DNA of 62,992 bases, counting the filler, from Folioceros fuciformis (lineage: Eukaryota): NCBI GenBank assembly GCA_049999805.1. It is 5 parts of 5 records of this genome, joined end to end, with 100 filler letters (N's around TTAATTAATTAA, not from the genome) between each part and the next. Parts side by side here need not be neighbours in the genome. Positions count along the whole stretch, not along the records: positions 1 to 16,128 come from JBNGIO010006413.1; 4 more parts are not named here. The stretch is one strand, 5' to 3'. Positions 10,429 through 59,593 of this stretch are shown in pieces. Position numbers and translations under genes: made by a program. The notes beneath the pieces were generated by a model. That model worked only from the letters and a program-made list of their open reading frames with translations, was not told where the DNA came from and ran no database searches. The stretch's first letter is position 1. Every line of letters begins with the position of its first letter.

Positions 10429-13400
10429 ATGTTAGGACAGTCTCAAACTCGTGAAATCCTGAGGCTGCGACAAGAATCAAGGCTAGACGTTCATGGCCAT
10501 TATGTGCGGGAAGTTCAGAATCCCAAAGAAGGGGAAGTTCCACGGCCAAGTGCAAGGAATGAGGTGAGGGAATCGGTGCCGCCCCAGGGTGCTATTGAGG
10601 ACAGACTGAGTATCCCAGCCTTCCAAAGAGCTTCAAGGACAGATGTTGGTCCTGGACAATCTGAAAGAATGTGGGCACGCACAGTTCCTCCTGCCAATCA
10701 AAGCGGGGAGCTTCTCAACCTGGATGAAACGCAAGGACTGGCAAAGGTAGACCACGAAGGTCCCCCTGGGGAATCACGAGTAACGGGGAGAGGGACTAAC
10801 TACACGTCCAACGAGAGTTCTTTGCTCCCGTCCTCTGGGGCTAGGCAACCAGGCTCTCCTCGGTTAGGATCTGTGGCCTCTACCAAATTGGCAAGGGTGG
10901 TTGAAGGAGAGGCGGCTTGGGGGCCGCCGACTTGGGACTCTGAACACATGGAAGGGGCATGCGGGCAGGAGAGCCCAAGACTCTGGTGGCATAAACAGGC
11001 CCCACAGAATGACTTTGGTAGTAGACAAACCAGGGCTCGAATCAACCTGCTTTCTGTGGAGGTGGGGGAGGAGACGCATGACGAGTTGTTACACACCTCT
11101 CCCACGGTGATGAATTTCAAGGACGACGGCCATGAGAGGAGAGGGTGTGCCGAGGTGGAGGACCAACCTGTCGGCGGAACCAGATCTCTGGATCAGCCAA
11201 AGATGCATGATCGTCCAACACTCAAGGAGCATGTGGATGCTGCACAAGAAAAACCCATTTTTGAATCATGCTTCTGCACAGGCGGAGTTCGCTCCCCATC
11301 AAGATCAGGAGGCCTCTAAGCAACCTCAAAGGGTGTGCTCGAACGGGGAAATTTGCTCTCCCTTGAACGAGGAACGGGAGCGGGGCGAGGTTCGCCAGAT
11401 ATCCTGCAGGCGCCATCTTGAGGGAGACTAAGAAGTCTCATGTTTGGAGAATGAAACGCAAAACAAAGACGAGAGGCATGCTGGGTGCACTGCAGGGAGT
11501 TGCCGGTTAAGCCACACAGATGTGGGAGACCAACTGGTTAGCAGATGCAGAGAATACCAGGCAGGGACCCCACTGGGAGTTGAGGCGATTTCGGCTGATA
11601 GAAACCCCGTCAAGCTGAAGTCGGTCATCACTGATGCAGCTCTTGTGAACACCAACGTGGGCTATCATGTGGAGGATTCATTTTGTATACATGTGTCAAG
11701 CTCTGAGGAGAAGGCCATGTAAGTTGGAGGTGGACTGGTCGACGAATTTTTAAATTGGACTTTTGCCTCAAAGAATGTGGGGGGGAAGTTGTGCCTCCAC
11801 ATTCGAAGAAGCAACAGCTACTGTAACACCACAGAAAAGGCCAACCCAGGATCACAAGACGACGTGCGACGGGAGCAGTTCAAGCGGTAGGGAAACGTCG
11901 ACTCCTCCGGACGCAAGAGGGATGACAGGACTTGAAGCTCTTCCTAGCAAGGTCGGTGATGGCTTGATGAAGAGTATTGTCAAAGTTCTTCAGGGAGAAA
12001 AGATGCTGGACTTCCAAGGGCTAGCTTCACCATTAGACAACATATCAGTACCAGTACACAAGTCTCTAGCAGGTGCTGCAATGTTAGTCGTAGGATCGGC
12101 CTACAGTTCCCCAACCTGGAAGACTGCTGGTGATCCAGTCCTGAAGTCGGGCCAACAAACGAATACAGAGGTGACCGTAGGGAAGCGGACTCAGTTCTCG
12201 GAGGATCCTCCGACTGCCCATAGATGACAGGATCAAATTGCAGTGACCACGGCAAGGAAGGCGTTAAACAAAGTAGTCCAACGTATGGCCTTGGCCATAA
12301 CTTCCCCCCAAGGCCATAACTTCCCCTGATGGAAAAAAGATCAAAGTGTTGGAGGGGTTCGGGGGTGGAAAACATGATAGCTCTGAGGCCCCAATCGCTG
12401 AGGCGAATGAGCCGTTGGCAGAGCATGCACACCACACGATTGGTGCAGTATCAGGGCCTCGGGAGGAAGAATGTGGATCAAAGCGCCCGAAACCGATTTT
12501 AATCGACTGTGCCAGTCCCACGATGAGAGCCAATGCGGTGTATGCATCTGAGGAGGACTTATTCTCCACTCCTTGCGCAAAGGACGATGATGATAGAGAA
12601 TCGGACTGGCATGAGGTTCAAGTTGGTTTTTCAGGAGATGAAGGGATTACCTCTCTGCTGAGTTCCATGAAGAGGCGCCTGGAGCAGGCAAAGGGTGCAC
12701 AGGAGATGCATCCTCCTTCAGGTCAGGAGGAGGGTTTAGGGTTTAGCTAGCGTACTTGGAAACCTGGAATGTAGGAACTCTTAGAGTACAACTAGGAGAA
12801 AATGCAGGCTGCTACGATCGGACATGCTTGTGCTAGCTGGGGCGAGATCAAAGCTTGGAAGTTTGGGATCTGAATCAGCCCCTTGTTTGCGTTCAGTAAC
12901 GGGTACTTAAACAATCTAGGCCTAGCAGGCCAAGAAAACTATTGGCCCGTAAGGCCGGTACGGTTTGTTAGCAACGGGCCTTATCTTCTTAGTGCGAAGA
13001 CGAATACATCTTGTTTATGACAGGTGGCGGGGGGTTAATCATCTCTACTTGAGTTTGACTAAACTGGTACTTAGGCGAGCTATAAAGTGGGTCCGGCTCC
13101 TGTTACGAGCAAGACATGTTTTTGCGGGTACCTTGCTTGTGACCTGCCTCACCTCCGCTGCGGGTGGGTTACGTCTTGCTGCTGGGGCCCTTGGCCTCCT
13201 TGTTTCTGTAGACTATGTGGAGGTCATAGGCTTACTGGGGTGGGACATGGCCACTGGTGTGGCATAGGCAGATGTCAATTAGTCTAACGGTTACGAGGAC
13301 AATGAAGGACGCATTCTCTTATTTAGCTATGAAAGGATATGCCACATGTCAATTAGTCTAACGGTTACGAGGACAATGAAGGACGCATTCTCTTATTTAG

Positions 13401-14420
13401 CTATGAAAGGAGGAGGTGGGGAGCTGCTGCCTGTTATCATTACTGTTCAGCAGCTCCACTCTGGGCAGGAAAAGATCTTTGATATCTTGTCTTCCGGAGG
13501 AGTCCATGTGAGTAAAGATGGCAAAGAGGTAGAGTACTTCAGTGGAGTCCACCTCAAAGAAGTTTGTGGGCCGACAATGTCGCTCAACCCAGACTGAAGG
13601 TGGACCCTGGTAGTTCCATGGACGAAGGACAGAGTGTGAACTTCAGGTAGAGCTGTGAGTGAAGCCAAGAGGCCTTCAGGATTTTATGGTAGCAAGATAG
13701 CTCCCGCCATATGCAAATTAGAACGTCTCCAAAGACTGTCCCAAGAGTATCTCGGTCTAGGCTCAAGTCTTGCGCTCAGGCTTCGAAGCAAACTGCTGTC
13801 TGAAATCTCTTAAGCAAATCCCAATTGATGGGCATTGACACTCTAAGGAACTATGAGAGAGGAGCGCACCTACGAATCATATCTTGGAATGTTAGAGGTT
13901 TGGGAGATGGTCCAAGACGGCTTCAAAGTGTAGAAGACTGAAGCGCCTTTCAGAAGAGGAGGTCACTGGGGACATTGTGTGCTTGCAGAAGCTTAAACTC
14001 TCAATGGAGCATATCCAAAGAGTGAAGAAAATATTCCTCCAGACAGGAGCAGCCTCTAGAGTAGGCTGGGAGGGCAGTTGGATGATCAAATCCCATGGAT
14101 GTTGGCTGGTGACTTCAACTTTGTTGAAAGACAGGAAGACATTCGAGGGGATAGCCCAGCAGACATTTGGGCGGTACCTTTATCATGGCAAGAGCTGAGA
14201 GATACTGTCTTGAAAGTGCAGGACTTGTGGTTGGCCCTTTCAGCCCATTGCCAACCAGAAATCTCTGATTTTCAGCTGGTCCAACCAACAACAGCAATGT
14301 TTGGGTGCTCGGAGGTTGGACAGATTTTATATACCTTCAGGATGGTTGTCATCCGCACAGTCGCACAGTATCCTAGCTAGAATGATTCTTTGAGACCACC
14401 AGCTAATTAACCTTCACTTG
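10429..14420 (+). mobile_element. Degenerate LINE (L1-like): low-complexity ORF1-like remnants followed by an APE endonuclease fragment
   Basis: Frameshifted APE motifs LRIISWNVRGLG (13870), WMLAGDFNFVE (~14100), RLDRFY (~14312) and DH (~14395). Assignment of 10429-13800 to the same element is only inferred. Confidence 0.6.
13272..13411 (+). repeat. 66-bp exact tandem duplication with 8-nt filler
   Basis: 13272-13337 equals 13346-13411; the spacer is TATGCCAC. Confidence 0.9.
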
Positions 14421-14875
14421 AGGCTCGCTCCAGGCTCTGGGTGTCAAAGAACAAGGTCTAACCCAAACGGTCGTTTTCCACGAAGCCCGTTTGATGCACA
14501 TTTGAATTTACACCATCCCAATCACATATCCATATTTTACGCTTTTTTTCAAAAACAACTTATATTGATGTGTGGTGGACATAATCTATCTCATTTGCTT
14601 CAAGCCCACAACCAAGTGGTACATAAACCCTTCAAATTCCAAAACTTTGAGAAGAAAATGAATCTTACTTTTGGTGCGCCGGTCTACCGGCGCCCTAAAG
14701 TGTATGTTTGAAGGATAGGAAACTGGCTATCTGCATCCCATGGATTTAAAAAAGAAATAGTCAAATTTGTTCATAATCATAATATACCATCCACTTCCAC
14801 TACTCTCAAAATCACCTTTAAACAAAAACATGAACGTCTTGATTGGCCTCGGAATCGACTACAACATCTACATCT

Positions 14876-16029
14876 TTAAGTCGCAGGCCCTCTGTCTCTG
14901 AAGTTGTCCCCCTCCACATCTAAAACAGAGAAATGCAAGTTGTCCACAGTCTCAAGCGGAATCGTTCCATTCTCATCCCATATAGTCATAGCATAAAGGT
15001 CTTCCGCCGGTCTGTCGTCCAATTGTGAAAAAGTCTCTCCTTTTTTTCCCAACAAATTGAATACTTGCATCCAACGATCCACACTATCATCCGCGCAGAC
15101 TGTTTTGGCCCAAAACTTCGTGGGCCCGTGCGAGAAATGCTCTGTGCTGATCTCCTCATCAAAGTCTGGCAAAGAGCCTATGCCATTCATAGAGCCGCTG
15201 CATGATGTAAGAGGTACATCTTATATCAATATCCACTGCAACAATATGCCTTCCTCTTTGAATCGTAGACTGTAGAAATGACCCAGATCCTGCGCAAGCA
15301 TCCACTACCCAGTCCCCTTTTGCGGAGAACATATTCACCAACATACCCATTAAACCAAGGGGCTTTTGATACGGCGAGACGACTAGAGAATCTGCTGAGT
15401 GGAACAGATGTTTCTTCACCACAGCACCATGCCTTATAACTCTCGGAAGAAGGAATCCCTGATTCGCGAATAATGGAGCTTTTGTGTCCTAAGCTTCAGA
15501 GTGAACTGCACTTCCAACAATTAAATACTCGACAATCTCTGCTACGCCTGCATTAGAAGGTATGTTAGTCTTCTCCCACACTAAGGTCTAAATGGTTCCC
15601 TTCTTGCACTATGGCTGAAGTGCTTCCCTAGCCTGTGTAAGGGTTTAGGGTTTAAGAACCATGCATAAGAACCACCCTATACACATGACTGTTGGTGCAT
15701 TTTGAAAACCCTCGAATCATGTCCTCAAGCTTTTTGCTTGTCAGCTACCTGTTGCATTCATGTCGTTGCAGTCTGTGAGGCAAATCTGCGAGTAAGAGAG
15801 TATACAATTGTTTTACCAGAAATGCTTTAATCTCCAAAACGTTTCGATGGATAACTTGATACTTAGTCTTATTGTTACTGTTTGGGACTCTGAACTCCGA
15901 TAATCCTACATCCATATCTACATCTACGAGTCTCTTCTTTTCTTCTTCCATGTGCTTCCAGTTTCTAGCAGAATAATAAATATAATCTTGAAAAGGCTTC
16001 GGCAATGCTTCAAGGTCTATGACGTCCAC
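14876..16029 (-). pseudogene. Decayed beta-class N6-adenine/N4-cytosine DNA methyltransferase (N6_N4_Mtase fold)
   Basis: Motifs in beta-class order: YQVIHRNVLEI..LYTLLLADLPH (catalytic DPPY-like motif IV), TLVWEKTN..VEYLIVG, PYQKPLGLMGMLVNMFSAKGDWVVDACAGSGS (SAM-binding motif I) and RGRHIVAVDID. Interrupted by TAG/TAA stops and frameshifts. The 5' part runs into a gap. Confidence 0.8.
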
Positions 16030-16228
16030 TGGTTTCTACCAAAAAGCATTTCATTCAGAAAAACTACACAAAAAACAGAATTGCAAATCAAGAACTACGT
16101 CACTCCAGCCTACGTAAGGGAAAAATCANNNNNNNNNNNNNNNNNNNNNNNNNNNNNNNNNNNNNNNNNNNNTTAATTAATTAANNNNNNNNNNNNNNNN
16201 NNNNNNNNNNNNNNNNNNNNNNNNNNNN

Positions 16229-16746: not shown

Positions 16747-17209
16747 AGCCGGGCAAGAGGATCAGGCCGCGGGCCAGACGAGGGTTTGAGAAGATCCAAG
16801 AGGGGCACGCGCATAGCGAGTGCCTTCCATGCCTACTCGTCTTCCACCGCCGCCCCCTTCTGCTGGGGCCTTCGCAGCTCCTTCCTCCCCTTCCCCCTCG
16901 CCTCCTTCTCTCCGTCCGACCATCCCCGTCTTACTGCGGGGAAAAAAGCTGTGGACTCGCCACTTTCGCCGCGGCTCCTTCCCCCGCGTAGGGTTCGTCC
17001 TTGCGGAAAAGAAAAACCGGGCATTTTCCTTCCGCGTTCTTTCCGCGGCTCGGCCCGGTCCGGCCCGCCTGGCAGAGCCACAGCCACGGATTCCAGATGT
17101 CGCCTTCTCTTGTGCTGGGAATCGGATGTGGCTCGCCAGGCAGCAGCGAGCAAAGGAATCGATGCTGCCTGCCGCATCATCTGCGGTTGTATCTGCATTT
17201 GCTTGAGCT

Positions 17210-18271
17210 ATGGCGGCTGCTTCCGCGTCCCTTGTGTGCGTGAATCCCGTGGGTTCCCACTTAAGTGCTGGGTCTGCGGTTTCCTCTTCCTCTTCGGAAC
17301 TTCTCTGCTTGCTCCCGGCGAGGCTGAAGCAGGGAGGCGCTTTGCGATGGCAGGCGCCCGCAGCGGGCTGCGTAAGGACGGGAGCCAGGGCTAGCTCGGG
17401 GGAGGTGTCCACTGCGGCAGAGGCAGAGGTCAGGTCTGAGGCCAGCCGCTGGGTTCCCGTCATTCCTGTGACCGCGCTGCCCAAGGGCGAGAGGCGGCTG
17501 GTGCGGCAGGACGGAGAGACAATTCTGCTGTTGTGGTACAAGAGCGAGGTGTTCGCCATCGAGAACACGTCCCCAGCCGAAGGAGCCTACAGTGAAGGCT
17601 TCTTCAATGCCAAATTGACGCAGGTACGCATGGCATTTCATTCTGCGTGCGAGATCTATGTGCGCCAGGTCCTGTTTCGATATTCCGTATTCAGCTCACA
17701 CACCTTGAGCAACAGGACGGCTGCATTGTGTGCCCGTCCACGGCAACCACATTCGACCTCAAGACTGGGGCCATTGTCCAGTGGTACCCTACCAATGCGG
17801 TGCTCAGATTTCTCATCCAGCCTGTAAGACAGCTGGATGTGTATCCGGTGAAGGTGGACTCTGACTACATCTACGTTGATCTGAAGAAAAAGATAAGCGG
17901 ACAATCTGCGGAGATTATTTTCGGTGGATCCACTCAGGCTGGGAAGACTGCCACGAACGTGGATGTGGAAGAGGTATGGCTTCCCTTTTGTGTTTACCAC
18001 AGGTCTTCGTGAGTGACGGAAGTTCTCGTTAGGAGCGTGGGGATTGATTCTGTATGCGCCTCCTTTACAGACGAGGATGGTGGAGGTGGACGAGAAGGAG
18101 GCCGGGGGATTTGGTTTCACCCCGGCTAACGAGATCACTAATGGAAGGGCGGCCATGATAGGCTTCACTGCGCTGCTCATCATCGAGCTGGTTACAGGCA
18201 AGGGTATCCTCAAAGGGACAGGCTTCTTAGACTTCCTGTACAGATTTTTGCCAAACTTTCCCGTGCTCTGA
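17210..18271 (+). CDS. PSB33: Chloroplast Rieske-like protein with C-terminal LHC motif (PSB33/LIL8)
   Basis: Exons 17210-17623, 17716-17973 and 18071-18271. Motifs LPKGERRLVRQ, SPAEGAYSEG, DGCIVCPST and FGFTPANEITNGRAAMIGF; transit-peptide-like N-terminus. Confidence 0.92.
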
Positions 18272-26716: not shown

Positions 26717-27689
26717 CCTGCCTTCCCTGCACNNNNNNNNNNNNNNNNNNNNNNNNNNNNNNNNNNNNNNNNNNNNNNNNNNNNNNNNNNNNNNNNNNNN
26801 NNNNNNNNNNNNNNNNNNNNNNNNNNNNNNNNCCTCCAACTGCTTCAATTGATCTCCTCCACCGCCTCTCGCAAGCACGCCCTCATAACGACCCCGTCAC
26901 TGCAGCAGACCAACAGCACAACCATATTCCACCGTCAGCGGGGGCTCGCCACCAGCAACACAGGGATAAGCAAAACACCGCAAAGGCAGAAATCCGGGGC
27001 CGGACTGGGAAGACTCACGCACGTCGCGGCTCACTCCCTGGAGACCACAGCTGTCCGGGGGGGCCAGATCCGTGCCTGCGGCCGCGATTCTGCTGGTATA
27101 CTGCTCTTGCACCTCGCGGCCGCTAGCCCTGCGTAAACAGAGTCCGGACGCCATCCGCCATAACATCGCCTGCGGGCCCACCTTCAGTGCGCCATACCCA
27201 TGTCCTCGTATACCAGAGTGCTTCAAGCTACTCTTCTACTGCATATGCTATGGTCCTGGCACGGGGGTACAGCCAAGAGAGGCGAGGGCTCCTGAGCTAA
27301 CTCAGATGATGTCACGCGGAAGCTGCCACTTCGCCTACTATCTCCCTGTCGACTCTACTTCCCTGATCACTGTCTCCATGCTGCGCACGTATTCAAATGC
27401 TTCCACCCTAACATCACACACGCTGTGCACAACCTAGAACTTTCGGACGGACTCGTCCGCTGATTTAGGGCCCAGGCTGAGAGCTGGAAGCATACTGTAG
27501 CCGAGCAAAGCAAAACATCAAGCCGATCACGATCCTGTGTCAATGACAAACATCTGCGTCTCGCTGAATGAGGAGCTAGCGTTCTCCTAACCTAGCTCTA
27601 CTTTTGGAATCCAAGGCGTGCCAGATAGCCTTGCCATTATCGAGTCATTTTGAGCAATGCTACATACGAGCTATGGTTGAGGCCCGGTT

Positions 27690-41280: not shown

Positions 41281-41351
41281 GCACCGGTGGTCTAGTGGTA
41301 GAATAGTACCCTGCCACGGTACAGACCCGGGTTCGATTCCCGGCCGGTGCA
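41281..41351 (+). tRNA. tRNA-Gly(GCC)
   Basis: GCACCGGTGGTCTAGTGGTAGAATAGTACCCTGCCACGGTACAGACCCGGGTTCGATTCCCGGCCGGTGCA: canonical plant tRNA-Gly with A/B boxes, upstream CAA and a downstream TTTT. Confidence 0.98.
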
Positions 41352-41715: not shown

Positions 41716-41927
41716 ATTGGATATGCTCGAGTTGCCTTATATATCCTTCATACAAGAGCTGATAATTAANNNNNNNNNNNNNNNNNNNNNNNNNNNNNNN
41801 NNNNNNNNNNNNNNNNNNNNNNNNNNNNNNNNNNNNNNNNNNNNNNNNNNNNNNNNNNNNNNNNNNNNNTTGCCTTATATATCCTTCATACAAGAGCTGA
41901 TAATTAACCTAATTTTAACTTTTTTTT

Positions 41928-47644: not shown

Positions 47645-47777
47645 NNNNNNNNNNNNNNNNNNNNNNNNNNNNNNNNNNNNNNNNNNNNTTAATTAATTAA
47701 NNNNNNNNNNNNNNNNNNNNNNNNNNNNNNNNNNNNNNNNNNNNCATCCGTCCTGATCTCCTTCTGAAATAAAGGTC

Positions 47778-53677: not shown

Positions 53678-54298
53678 CGTTCAGCTCAGGCACGCGGCAT
53701 CGCCAGGCCTGAAGCGACGTTCGGCAAGGCATGATTCTGGCTGGGATCCGCGATCCATCGTGGAAGTTGTGTTCTTTCCAATCCAGCGATGCGCTCGAGA
53801 TCTCAAGCGGTGTCTGCAGTTGAGCGGGCCTGAAGAAATCTGTCTCGTGGGCCTTCCCAGTCTGAAGCGTCGCACATCTTGAACCTGAAGCGGTGCACCC
53901 TTGCCTCGAAGCTGTGATTCTTCCTGAACTCTGGTTGCGGGTGCCTGAAGACTGGTTCTCTTGGTTGTTGCGGACGCCCCTGCAGCATGACTCCGGTGAC
54001 ATCCAGCGTGCTACCAATTGTCACAAGCGCTCTCTGCTGCAAAATCTAGAAACCCTGACTTTACCTCTCTCCCGCTACGCGCTTCTCTTCCGACTGTCAA
54101 CCTTTCTTGTAGCATGATCCATTCTTCGAAGAAGATCTTGGGCGGTCTGATCATCCGTCCTGATCTCCTTCTGAAATAAAGGTCATGGCTACTGGAAGNN
54201 NNNNNNNNNNNNNNNNNNNNNNNNNNNNNNNNNNNNNNNNNNTTAATTAATTAANNNNNNNNNNNNNNNNNNNNNNNNNNNNNNNNNNNNNNNNNNNN

Positions 54299-55661: not shown

Positions 55662-56999
55662 AGTTACCTATGTAGTAGAATGTCTGTCTACCTACACGAG
55701 AGTACCTATGTGGGGTAGATGCCTAGGAGCGAGGGTACCTACTTAGGTATGCCTACTTATAGGCATTTAGCCTAGGCCTACACCTATGTAGGTAGGGAAG
55801 GTACTTATATGGGCTAGACACCCCACCTACAAAAAGGAAGTGGTAGGGAGCCTACCTACGAGAGAGGGAGTAGGGAACCTATCTATGAGAGGAGCAACAA
55901 GAGCCAACCTACAAGCCTACAACAACTGAGGGATGGATGTGGCCACGATACATGTGAGTGGGTGCCTGGTAGGGGAACCATCTTGCTCGTCCACACCTTG
56001 GAAAAGAAGTGACAACCCAAGTATAGGAGAGGGAAATTGTCAGCATTGGAAGATGCTGCAAGGAGTTATGTGAAGATGTGGTAAGATGCTTTGAAGCATT
56101 CTTTGCATGTGTAAGAGCTCAAAGGCCTTTGAACAGCCATTTCCATGATCTAAAGGAGGCTGTAAGATGAGGAGAGTGTGTTTCTGTAAGACACATGTTG
56201 TTTGCAAGGGCACAAACAAGTGAGGTGGGGAGTAATGTGGAATAGAAAACTTTGGTAATCAGTCTAAATTAGTCTAGGAAGGTTTGACTTGGTTCCCTTT
56301 TGCTTAAGACGGTTCAAAAAAAAAGGCATATGGAAGGCAAGTCTTTGGGCAAGCACCCACGGGAGGTAGTGAGTGGCTAGTGAAGGTTTTATTAGATTTG
56401 TTTCATTCTATTTTGGTAGGTTATGTGTGTCGCAATAGGATGAGGTAATACTCCATTAAGAAAAGAAGATACCTCCTTAGGATGTCTACCTACTTACCAT
56501 AGGGTATATCCCTACGTAGGGAGGGTATATGTAGGACGTCTACGTATATGCATGTAGATTTAGGCAGTGACTTCGCCTCCTTTTAAGAGTAGTCTTAGCC
56601 AATCCATGCTTGGAGATCTAGAAAAGGGGAGGGCTAAGAATCTTTAATGGCGGTGTCGATGATCCCCAACTTTTAGTGGTGCGCGCTGCCATGATAGATT
56701 ATTGGTAGGCCTTTATATCTTGATAGGCATTTGAATTGAAGTTTGTGGCGGCTAGTGCGAGAGAAGAATAGTCCAACACCTGCATGTAGGGGAAGGTTCA
56801 TGTGTAGATGTGAGAGGAGAGTAGTCCAACATCTACATGTAGGGGAAGGTTCATGTGTAGAGGTCTCCTATAAGAAGAGGTTGCACAAACAAATGAACCA
56901 CGACATTTTGCACTCTTCTCATGGCAAGTCCTCATGCTCAGCAAAGCATAGTTCATTGCCGGTTGTGTGCCTTCCTCATGCTTAGCNNNNNNNNNNTGG

Positions 57000-58510: not shown

Positions 58511-59593
58511 ACCGCGAATGACCTAGCCTGCATCTTACTGTTCGCTAAGTTTGGCACGGATGCCAGCCACGCAGCTGCCCCCCATTGCTGCCCATGGCTT
58601 TGGAAAGGTAAGCAAAAGTAGCCTCGTTAGCCAACTCCAGGCGCTCCTACTCCATTTTCGGACACAGATGAAGAGCCTCTTCACAGAGCCCTTCCTCTGC
58701 GCACCCGGCGGTCAGGCACGTTGATGTCACCACATCCTCGTTTAGGACACACTGTCAAAAACCCGGCGGGCATCTTGCAGTTCGCCACGTTTTGGACATG
58801 GAAGTTTGGAATGGAAGCTGACTTTCCTGACTACCCAGCATCCTCGAGAGTACAATTTGAGGTGGCAGAAAGCGGGCACTTCACCGTCATGGATTTGTTC
58901 AGGCCGACTGTCAAGATCTACACATCCAAGGATAGCAGCTGGAAAGCCTCGGTCCTCACTCAGCCCCGCTGGTTATCGTTCAGAGGACGTCGCAACCACT
59001 GGCCTCAGTTTCTTTTGTGGAATGGTGAGATGTGCAAAATAAGACAAAGGGGAACAAGTTGATGACCATTCATTGTCTCAAAAGTGGAAGGGTTATTTGG
59101 GATGGTAACACCGGGGTGACATTGGTGGTGACGAAGAAGTAGCAGCCTCTTTTCACTCCAGACTACATCAGCGGATGGCAGGGGGAGTATATCGAAGTAG
59201 CAAGAGGGAAACCCTAGCAACAGTGTATGATGAAAGTAGCTTGCAACGATGGAAATCAAAATGTTGACGAAGACGCAACGGTTTTCAGTTTGTTTTACAC
59301 TGGAAATGGCTTGCAGGGATGGACGCTAAATGTTGCATGTAATCGTAACGCTTTCGAGTTAGTCAGGAGACTGGTAGGCACTGCAATTAGCAAACCTCAA
59401 TAACCTGCTACTATAGGACACATCCTAGTAGGCTCCAGCAGAATGGCCACACAGGCAGACCCGCAAAAGCCGCTTGCAAGCAGTCGTGGGGTGNNNNNNN
59501 NNNNNNNNNNNNNNNNNNNNNNNNNNNNNNNNNNNNNTTAATTAATTAANNNNNNNNNNNNNNNNNNNNNNNNNNNNNNNNNNNNNNNNNNNN

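Follow-up and report, generated by a model that had tools for sequence, protein, structure and literature searches.

How a gene for a prokaryote-type DNA-modifying enzyme came to lie, broken, at the very right-hand end of a scaffold of the land plant Folioceros fuciformis is the question raised by the 62,992-nucleotide (nt) stretch of DNA analysed here (assembly GCA_049999805.1; hereafter the window, i.e., the whole stretch at its full length). By its sequence, the interval 14876–16035 on the minus strand, at the end of the 16,128-base scaffold JBNGIO010006413.1, is a decayed copy of an intronless gene for a β-class (circularly permuted) amino-DNA methyltransferase. This copy is itself dead and does nothing. 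We assign a probability of about 0.8 to the reading that it is a decayed member of a dispersed, many-copy repeat in which the methyltransferase gene is most likely the cargo of a DNA mobile element.

The whole relic (14876–16035, minus strand) amounts to ~380 codons with no intron, spread over three reading frames, and can be aligned end to end with intact relatives of 340–450 amino acids (aa). Frame A (15661–16035, minus) holds the N-terminal region and the catalytic half; it includes the strings LPKPFQDYI (15979–16005, minus) and YRVVLMH (15661–15681, minus), motif IV in the form D-L-P-H-R (15772–15786, minus; Arg codon AGA at 15772–15774), and one internal TAG at 15745–15747. Frame B (15195–15644, minus) contains VWEKTNI, EYLIVG, SPYQKP (15360–15377, minus), which precedes the motif I region, and the half that is predicted to bind S-adenosylmethionine (AdoMet), with the AdoMet loop GDWVVDACAGSGS at 15279–15317 (minus) and the string VAVDIDIRC; it is interrupted by three TAG stops (15609–15611, 15588–15590, and 15489–15491). 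Frame C (14876–15193, minus) comprises the motif SLPDFDEEIS, at the place of which relatives have LPDEDQEIG or LPTEEQEIG, and an acidic tail (21 Asp/Glu versus 8 Lys/Arg in 105 residues) that ends on a TAA at 14876–14878, the likely native stop. The peptide strings quoted in the first-pass annotation of this DNA, which had been read across stops by translation of the minus strand, are indeed present there.

In all, four internal stops, each a TAG, and two frameshifts interrupt the relic, with a fifth TAG just upstream (16036–16038). The shift from frame A to frame B (15636–15662, minus) falls where the gene strand has a (CCCTAAA)2-like stretch, i.e., a plant-telomere-type heptamer present twice, which may be chance. 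The shift from frame B to frame C lies at 15186–15200 (minus). Between the relic and the scaffold end remain 93 bases (16036–16128, minus), within which no start codon could be placed, and on the other side a non-coding 3′ part of the same repeat extends over 14468–14875 (minus).

When read through its stops, frame B matches the Pfam family PF01555 (N6_N4_Mtase) at E 4.4e-8 and 33.8 bits, against a curated cut-off of 26.7 bits; of five open reading frame (ORF) pieces scanned separately, one reaches that cut-off. The sole other Pfam row under E 0.01 is FtsJ, at 21.4 bits and hence below its own cut-off of 24.1, and the same scan returned no match to UPF0020 or to PF05063 (MT-A70). PF01555 is thus the best profile, ahead of any Trm11-type (UPF0020) or other RNA or protein methyltransferase profile, in keeping with the earlier proposal of a β-class amino-methyltransferase of DNA type, distinct from MT-A70 proteins. 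The permuted motif order on which that proposal leaned is likewise found, in that motif IV lies upstream of the AdoMet loop on the minus strand. In tblastn comparisons of six intact relatives with the whole window, the C-terminal half was matched by all six (best E 2e-21) and nowhere else, and the N-terminal half by four of the six, the next best place in the window scoring E 0.27. Using blastx against 180 family proteins, identity reached 49% over 84 residues (P0068) and E values reached 3e-28 (P0141).

That the relic is no single stray gene emerges from a comparison of positions 13500–16128 with contigs of four public runs of the same organism (X1–X4). One exact contig spans 13500–14621, bridging flank and repeat, at a depth of 8.7 (X1) and 11.2 (X2). 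At the repeat boundary (~14440–14468), where loose contig ends occur at 14466, the summed contig depth, which is not a copy number, climbs from 23–31 to 427–670; from 14468 to the scaffold end at 16128, individual bins have summed depths of 63–427 (X1) and 80–670 (X2), contributed by many short contigs. The contigs over 13500–16128 are mostly 85–95% alike, with values below 95% in 224 of 283 (X1) and 295 of 372 (X2), and an alternative letter at a single site is carried by 8 to 15 different contigs (8 and 8 at position 15610; 10 and 15 at 15103). The relic is one of many diverged copies of a dispersed repeat. As the gene is part of this repeat, it is most likely the cargo of a DNA mobile element; the first-pass annotation had already suggested that it may be such cargo, and its multi-copy state in the organism's own DNA runs supports this.

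The other copies also reveal how this one decayed. In a codon-by-codon reading, among the rows listed, they have CAG where the window has TAG at 16038, 15747, and 15491, and TGG at 15611; for the TAG at 15588–15590, no sense alternative occurs among the differing rows listed (435 further rows exist). Both frameshifts are 4-base insertions relative to other copies: 4 bases at 15190/15191 are absent from most of them, and 4 bases at 15641 are absent from one contig. In X1, 182 of the 256 differing places are transitions, and this preponderance of transitions between relic and copies is as expected of a methylated, silenced repeat. The stops of the relic are largely C-to-T changes, three of them within CAG. 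The first-pass annotation had found them to fit CAG-to-TAG decay, which holds for three of the four TAGs with a sense alternative, the fourth being TGG-to-TAG. It had also suggested that there may be intact copies elsewhere: less broken copies of the gene are present in the same genome, with sense codons at four of the five TAGs and with both frameshifts absent. At the Arg codon of motif IV, most other copies have GGA (Gly) where the window has AGA, and the native motif IV of the repeat is D-L-P-H-G, as read from the differing letters and not from a built consensus sequence. The suggestion that D-L-P-H-R had decayed from D-L-P-Y-G therefore stands for the Arg and seems to fail for the His: Tyr is not seen in this branch, and the His, which is common to the D-I-P-H-G of the Ginkgo protein introduced below, is probably original.

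Two further runs were compared over the same interval. Relative to the window, X3 differs almost only by C-to-T (141 places) and G-to-A (116 places) among 318 places, as would be expected had the library been converted, by bisulfite or enzymatically; there may thus already be methylation data on this organism. X4, which we guessed to be RNA, gave 11 matched contigs, those listed all lying within 13902–14334, and is uninformative on expression.

Intact relatives form a family of 340–450-aa proteins. With the read-through relic as query, a word-indexed protein search at longer lengths yielded one of them (P0003), and none of 16 candidates passed at near lengths. From P0003, 25 more proteins of 219–398 aa were reached, at 47–71% identity to it, and an exhaustive HMMER search returned 366 cluster representatives at E≤1e-3, of which 82 were at E≤1e-10. 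Members whose names were looked up comprise Ginkgo biloba Gb_37443, five proteins of Chara braunii (four annotated as "DNA methylase N-4/N-6 domain-containing" and one as "Uncharacterized protein"), and two of Riccia sorocarpa. Eukaryotic cases of this type are therefore less rare than the earlier statement had it, this one family having at least five Chara, two Riccia, and one Ginkgo proteins. Our literature search, which did not extend to subscription journals and supplements, found no description of the family in streptophytes. PF01555 scores 27–66 bits in 9 of 10 long relatives; a Pfam scan of these ten found no SET domain, no RNA-binding domain, and no PF05063 match, and UPF0020 appears among them as a sub-threshold match in one Chara protein only, elsewhere in that protein. 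One Chara protein (P0040; GBG86584.1, 1825 aa) matches the relic twice, at ~448–569 and 1617–1692, and may be either a protein with a pair of methyltransferase-like domains or the product of merged gene models.

The members share several landmarks: a helix near the N-terminus with [IL]-P-x-x-F; Y-T-L-x-x-x-D-[ILVF]-P-[YHR]-G; W/Y-R-x-V-x-x-H; W-x-K-x-N; P-Y-Q-K-P and, after it, G-D-W-V-x-D-x-C-x-G-[ST]-G; and an acidic tail. The N-terminal and acidic C-terminal regions, in which the first-pass annotation saw the sign of a larger fusion, are thus ordinary parts of a 340–450-aa protein; fusions as such do occur, to a ParB-like region, in the Ginkgo, Chara, and Riccia gene models. A tree was built of the relic and 61 of 182 family proteins, namely those matching P0004 all the way from motif IV to motif I; in it, P0068, P0071, and P0060, all with motif IV D-L-P-R-G, form a group with the relic at SH-aLRT (Shimodaira-Hasegawa-like approximate likelihood ratio test) supports of 95 and 98. 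This clade is sister (support 89) to Ginkgo plus two unnamed rows, so that the nearest named relative of the relic is the Ginkgo protein; Riccia and a 25-row metagenome clade fall inside the same larger group, and Chara outside it. The branch of the relic is long (1.27), and its best identity is 33%.

What would an intact protein do? The canonical β-class motif IV is (D/N/S)-P-P-(Y/F/W). The relic's D-L-P-H-R and the D-L-P-H-G of the other copies depart from this consensus, keeping the Asp and the second Pro, and are thus a variant of it. Relatives have D-L-P-R-G (the three nearest), D-I-P-H-G (Ginkgo), or D-[IVF]-P-Y-G (the larger clade), and every member examined begins the motif with Asp, (T)SPPY being found in none. 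An AlphaFold model of the relative P0004, built with 14 sequences (mean predicted local distance difference test score 54; core 75–93), was closest in Foldseek to CcrM (E 6.9e-14), then, at ~1e-10, to M1.HpyAVI, M.RsrI (9.5e-11), TTHA0409, M.BceJIV, M.PvuII, and the rotifer N4CMT (2.6e-10); METTL3 and MTA1 came far below the bacterial enzymes, at E ~1e-6. When a profile including the Ginkgo, Chara, and Riccia sequences was compared with solved structures, M.MboIIA came first (3.5e-7), followed by DpnA, CcrM, and RsrI, with the N4-cytosine enzymes lower (PvuII 3e-3; N4CMT 7e-3); a profile of the largest clade found no solved structure at E≤1e-3, giving weak rows only at E 0.02–0.06. Matches to NCBIfam were partial and far below threshold, and all were to adenine-specific or generic models. 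From the profile ranking, the adenine models of NCBIfam, and a motif IV that begins with Asp rather than with the Ser of the SPPY type, N6-adenine appears a somewhat likelier target than N4-cytosine, the former being put at a little better than even and the latter well below even. An intact protein would bind AdoMet through its C-terminal loop D-x-C-x-G-S-G and, once a base had been flipped into its D-L-P-H-G pocket, would methylate that base on the exocyclic amino group.

The best-surviving alternative concerns this chemistry, namely that the family has left DNA methylation altogether and is now an inactive DNA-binding module or acts on RNA or protein, in which case the relic is uninformative on N6-methyladenine (6mA) or N4-methylcytosine (4mC). 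In place of the aromatic residue of motif IV, the three nearest relatives have Arg, and both the window and Ginkgo have His; inactive or RNA-directed derivatives are described for several acquired amino-methyltransferases in the accessible text of Iyer et al. 2016 (PMC4738411). We nonetheless judge this unlikely: the Chara, Riccia, Ginkgo, and unnamed clades have all retained P-Y-Q-K-P, the AdoMet loop, and, in motif IV, the Asp and the second Pro, the larger clade keeps the canonical Tyr, and the sole partner seen, described next, is DNA-binding by likeness, with no RNA-binding domain among the ten long members.

The gene neighbourhood of relatives offers a picture of the kind of element concerned. 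Seven contigs of 2–5 kb, all from one single metagenome, carry close kin of the Y-type clade, and these contigs, together with gene models, supply the evidence for a cassette. Directly upstream of the methyltransferase lies a 370-aa ORF (ORF-B) in six of the seven loci, the seventh contig beginning inside the gene; in the two contigs with room, ORF-B is itself preceded by an ORF (ORF-A) that has no Pfam family. Two of the four ORF-B copies read contain a stop or frameshift. In the Ginkgo, Chara, and Riccia proteins, the N-terminal half is a homologue of ORF-B, and therefore the two genes have been fused in the named genomes, or merged by their gene models. As to its nature, ORF-B matches HTH_ParB at E 8e-4, which is below the cut-off; its five best Foldseek rows are all Noc or ParB (E 0.056–0.45); and KorB is the best of 48,161 chains in VIA-align (Z 6.2, with SopB, ParB, and Spo0J at Z 4.1–4.3), values under 8 being common there. 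These weak but consistent sequence and model matches suggest a ParB-like protein; a Pfam scan found no 2-oxoglutarate (2OG) oxygenase domain in it.

Every spacer between the ORFs of two of these loci is filled with clusters of 28–38-nt palindromes (L002, 189–613, 1707–2047, 3181–3489, and 4678–4967; L005, 62–392, 1232–1840, 2996–3418, and 4637–4864). The palindrome sequences of the two loci differ in their cores, within a common GAAT...ATTC frame and an identical layout, and they may serve the ParB-like protein as binding sites or form hairpins at transcript ends. Downstream of the methyltransferase in four of the seven loci, and convergent to it, is an ORF of >670 aa with a DUF7869 domain (E 8.9e-50), on the minus strand in each case (L006, 966–2981; L001, 1945–3072; L003, 3006–3539; L005, 4945–5028). 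It contains the motifs QLDNTSRENKN and GHTHDQIDQ, has no relative in the PDB, and yielded no paper in a literature search for the term DUF7869; it may be the transposase of the element. As pictured from these relatives, which are 25–50% identical to the relic, the methyltransferase would work in a cassette with the ParB-like DNA-binding protein, which would in turn recognise palindrome arrays within the element. Such a cassette would travel with the DUF7869 protein and could mark the element's own DNA. Beside the relic itself there is a single perfect 8+8 palindrome, GCGCCGGT-CT-ACCGGCGC (14676–14693), ~185 bases downstream of the stop and inside the repeat.

Large DNA viruses often carry amino-methyltransferases. 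Under a second alternative, raised by the first-pass annotation, the relic would be a piece of an endogenous virus of this kind, or of a virophage-like insertion. The gene is intronless, as viral genes are, and the nearest named clusters of a protein atlas are viral, mostly of Uroviricota phages. Against this, two scans of 2.9 million viral contigs produced no close relative: in the first, a pattern scan, none of 26 pattern matches was confirmed, and in the second, made with the window's own clade, five loci were found at only 23–33% identity, among them L009, a plain 224-aa PF01555 gene with no ParB neighbour among the five ORFs scanned. The seven metagenome loci, too, showed no gene for a capsid, a polymerase, or packaging, their fourth gene encoding the DUF7869 protein, and copies that are dispersed and 85–95% alike speak against a viral insertion as well. 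We regard this explanation as very improbable.

A third alternative, which we rate a shade lower again, is that the relic is a pseudogene of a host gene, i.e., that a horizontally acquired methyltransferase was domesticated in the manner of DN4MT1 or N4CMT and has since died, without ever having been mobile-element cargo. There are precedents in two published eukaryotic domestications of PF01555 enzymes, as described in the accessible parts of their reports (10.1101/2021.02.12.428880; PMC8885841), and in Ginkgo, Chara, and Riccia the annotated members of the family sit on large chromosomal contigs (1–51 Mb for the named members with a contig on record). This explanation is countered by the many diverged copies in the organism's DNA runs and by the sharp rise in summed depth at ~14468 beside a low-depth flank; moreover, the gene has no intron, the relic is surrounded by other repeats on its scaffold, Chara has at least five paralogues, and half of the ORF-B copies read are themselves broken. 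Finally, that the scaffold contains contaminant bacterial or phage DNA, as a fold and family of prokaryotic type might suggest, is scarcely credible given the copia-type reverse transcriptase fragment (RVT_2, E 5.6e-25) and cytochrome P450 fragment found by Pfam on the same scaffold, the exact DNA-run contig that bridges flank and repeat, a CpG depletion that runs throughout the window and affects the relic like its flank, a nearest named relative from Ginkgo, and a pattern scan of the genomes of 185,579 prokaryote species in which none of 37 pattern matches was confirmed (a scan that distant kin would escape); the first-pass annotation had likewise taken the DNA to be the plant's own.

We return to the reading that the relic is a decayed methyltransferase copy in a dispersed repeat and most likely mobile-element cargo. 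Several points weigh against it, the first being that summed depths limit the claim to "many diverged copies" and that the DNA runs may derive from the same sample as the assembly. The cassette evidence comes from metagenome contigs and gene models and not from this genome; the scores by which ORF-B is assigned to ParB are all below threshold; and the transposase role of the DUF7869 protein is conjectural. With ORF-A, ORF-B, and the DUF7869 ORF as queries, no match was found in the window, nor does it show the ends of an element, a target-site duplication, a transposase, or a palindrome array; with only 93 bases of scaffold left upstream of the relic, the cassette partners would lie out of view. 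With regard to activity, the substitutions in motif IV (Leu for the first Pro, His for the aromatic residue, and Arg in the nearest relatives) mean that the relic's branch may be catalytically weak, dead, or retargeted, and the structural matches from Foldseek do not separate N6-adenine from N4-cytosine enzymes.

Among known systems, the closest published analogue, compared here by description and not by sequence, is the Plavaka-associated gene (PAG) cassette of red algae. According to the accessible text of its preprint (10.1101/2025.02.11.637652), PAG1 is of unknown function, PAG2 combines a PF01555 methylase with a SET domain, and PAG3 combines a ParB-like domain with a 2OG oxygenase; the cassette rides on red-algal Plavaka, Zisupton, Mutator, and Fanzor-bearing elements, which are high-copy DNA transposons, adjoins inverted-repeat arrays, and is degenerate in most copies. 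The metagenome relatives of our family resemble it in having a PF01555 gene beside a weakly ParB-like gene and palindrome arrays. They differ in that neither SET nor 2OG was found by Pfam in the family members and ORF-B scanned, in that the large ORF encodes a DUF7869 protein rather than a recognised Plavaka, Zisupton, or Mutator transposase, and in that the hosts are streptophytes and not red algae. The transposon-borne methyltransferases in the accessible part of the Fanzor paper (PMC3627910) belong to other families and are not relevant here, and a paper on Cycas sperm likewise has no bearing on the relic.

Two eukaryotic enzymes offer a second comparison. DN4MT1a/b of Marchantia, in the available text of its preprint, write 4mC in sperm DNA, carry TSPPY, and are a tandem pair of expressed host genes (10.1101/2021.02.12.428880). 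They share with our family a prokaryote-type amino-methyltransferase of permuted motif order in a land plant; they differ in their TSPPY, the family motif being D-[ILVF]-P-[YHR]-G, and in that the family occurs in many copies, in association with a ParB-like gene. With D-V-P-Y-G, both Riccia members are therefore not of DN4MT1 type by motif. The N4CMT of bdelloid rotifers has SPPY, a C-terminal chromodomain, and a single allelic pair of genes with introns in the portion of the report available (PMC8885841; structures 8s9m/8s9n/8s9o). It shares the PF01555 β-class fold in a eukaryote, as the Foldseek match to the family-member model indicates; its SPPY motif and chromodomain set it apart, and its sequence likeness to the family is marginal (E 0.007–0.03).

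The bacterial and phage N6-adenine methyltransferases, including CcrM, M.RsrI, M.MboIIA, DpnA/M1.HpyAVI, and M.BceJIV, are the best structural or profile matches, have the same motif order, and share P-x-Q-K-P followed by loops of the D-x-F-x-G-S-G type. The closeness of the P0004 model to CcrM adds to the profile evidence for the class assigned at first pass. However, sequence likeness to these enzymes is confined to the AdoMet half, and our family lacks the first Pro of motif IV and has N-terminal and acidic C-terminal extensions. The "clade 6" amino-methyltransferases of haptophytes are described, in the accessible text of Iyer, Zhang, and Aravind 2016, as derived from phage ParB-terminase loci, unpermuted, fused to FHA, and restricted to haptophytes (PMC4738411). 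They are alike in being eukaryotic and lineage-expanded amino-methyltransferases with prokaryotic kin beside ParB genes, and unlike in that our family is permuted and found in streptophytes; the same text gives few N6-adenine methyltransferases in land plants and, as far as it is accessible, lists no such plant family. The MT-A70/METTL clade (DPPW, PF05063) is a different group, the members scanned having no PF05063 match and the METTL3 and MTA1 structures being distant in Foldseek.

The surroundings of the relic are composite. The window is a chain of unrelated unplaced scaffolds, whose neighbours across linkers are unlinked in the genome. Each linker consists of N44 + TTAATTAATTAA + N44, with stops in all six frames, and occurs four times (16129–16228, 47645–47744, 54199–54298, and 59494–59593). 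The first of these (no strand) adjoins the relic's scaffold; the first-pass annotation took it for a gap to be closed, and it is an artificial scaffold linker and not a sequencing gap inside a locus. As it is a recurring linker, the DNA to the right of 16228 belongs to an unrelated scaffold. Plain runs of N also occur, of 100 letters (N100) at 26733 and at 41770 and of 10 letters (N10) at 56987. On the left of the relic, a plus-strand stretch at 13804–14430 seems to end just after an endonuclease part, adjoining the boundary of the methyltransferase repeat. Its motifs resemble what we take to be the endonuclease of a retrotransposon without long terminal repeats; the single Pfam match of the stretch is to Exo_endo_phos, at E 0.19. 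The stretch is likewise repetitive (summed depth 208–324 at 14028–14203), and the X4 contigs listed match no other part of the compared interval. We would guess at a nested insertion, with the methyltransferase repeat inserted into a long interspersed nuclear element (LINE). Farther left is a 69-base tandem duplication of 98.6% identity (13269–13337 and 13343–13411). The other scaffolds of the window hold a Rieske_2 domain ORF at 17207–17827 (plus strand; E 4.6e-8) and one tRNA gene at 41281–41351 (plus strand), the sole Rfam match at gathering score in the window.

Ultimately, what is new here is a many-copy repeat with less broken copies of a methyltransferase gene, and a streptophyte family with a ParB-like partner that resembles without matching the red-algal cassette. 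Land plants are said to have almost no prokaryote-type amino-DNA methyltransferases in the accessible text of one survey (PMC4738411), and Marchantia DN4MT1, as described in the available part of its preprint, is the only characterised exception that we found (10.1101/2021.02.12.428880). Our boldest proposal, which we hold to be doubtful, is that a still-active family of DNA transposons equipped with an epigenetic writer module of its own persists in streptophytes, among them this genome and one or more seed plant lineages. In this module, a ParB-like protein loaded on the palindrome arrays of the element would bring in an amino-methyltransferase with D-x-P-[YH]-G, and 6mA (or 4mC) would be written on the element itself or on host DNA close by. 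If so, the elements would possess a device for marking themselves or for countering silencing, related to the red-algal PAG cassette by homology or by convergence, and intact copies in this genome would be a source of DNA methylation other than 5-methylcytosine in a land plant. The value of the dead copy is as a pointer, leading to a family in a charophyte, a liverwort, Ginkgo, and this genome. Should any member be active, the contested signals of 6mA or 4mC in plants would gain a specific candidate enzyme; the family would also exemplify transposons with their own DNA-marking machinery and be a pool from which hosts may recruit enzymes such as DN4MT1.

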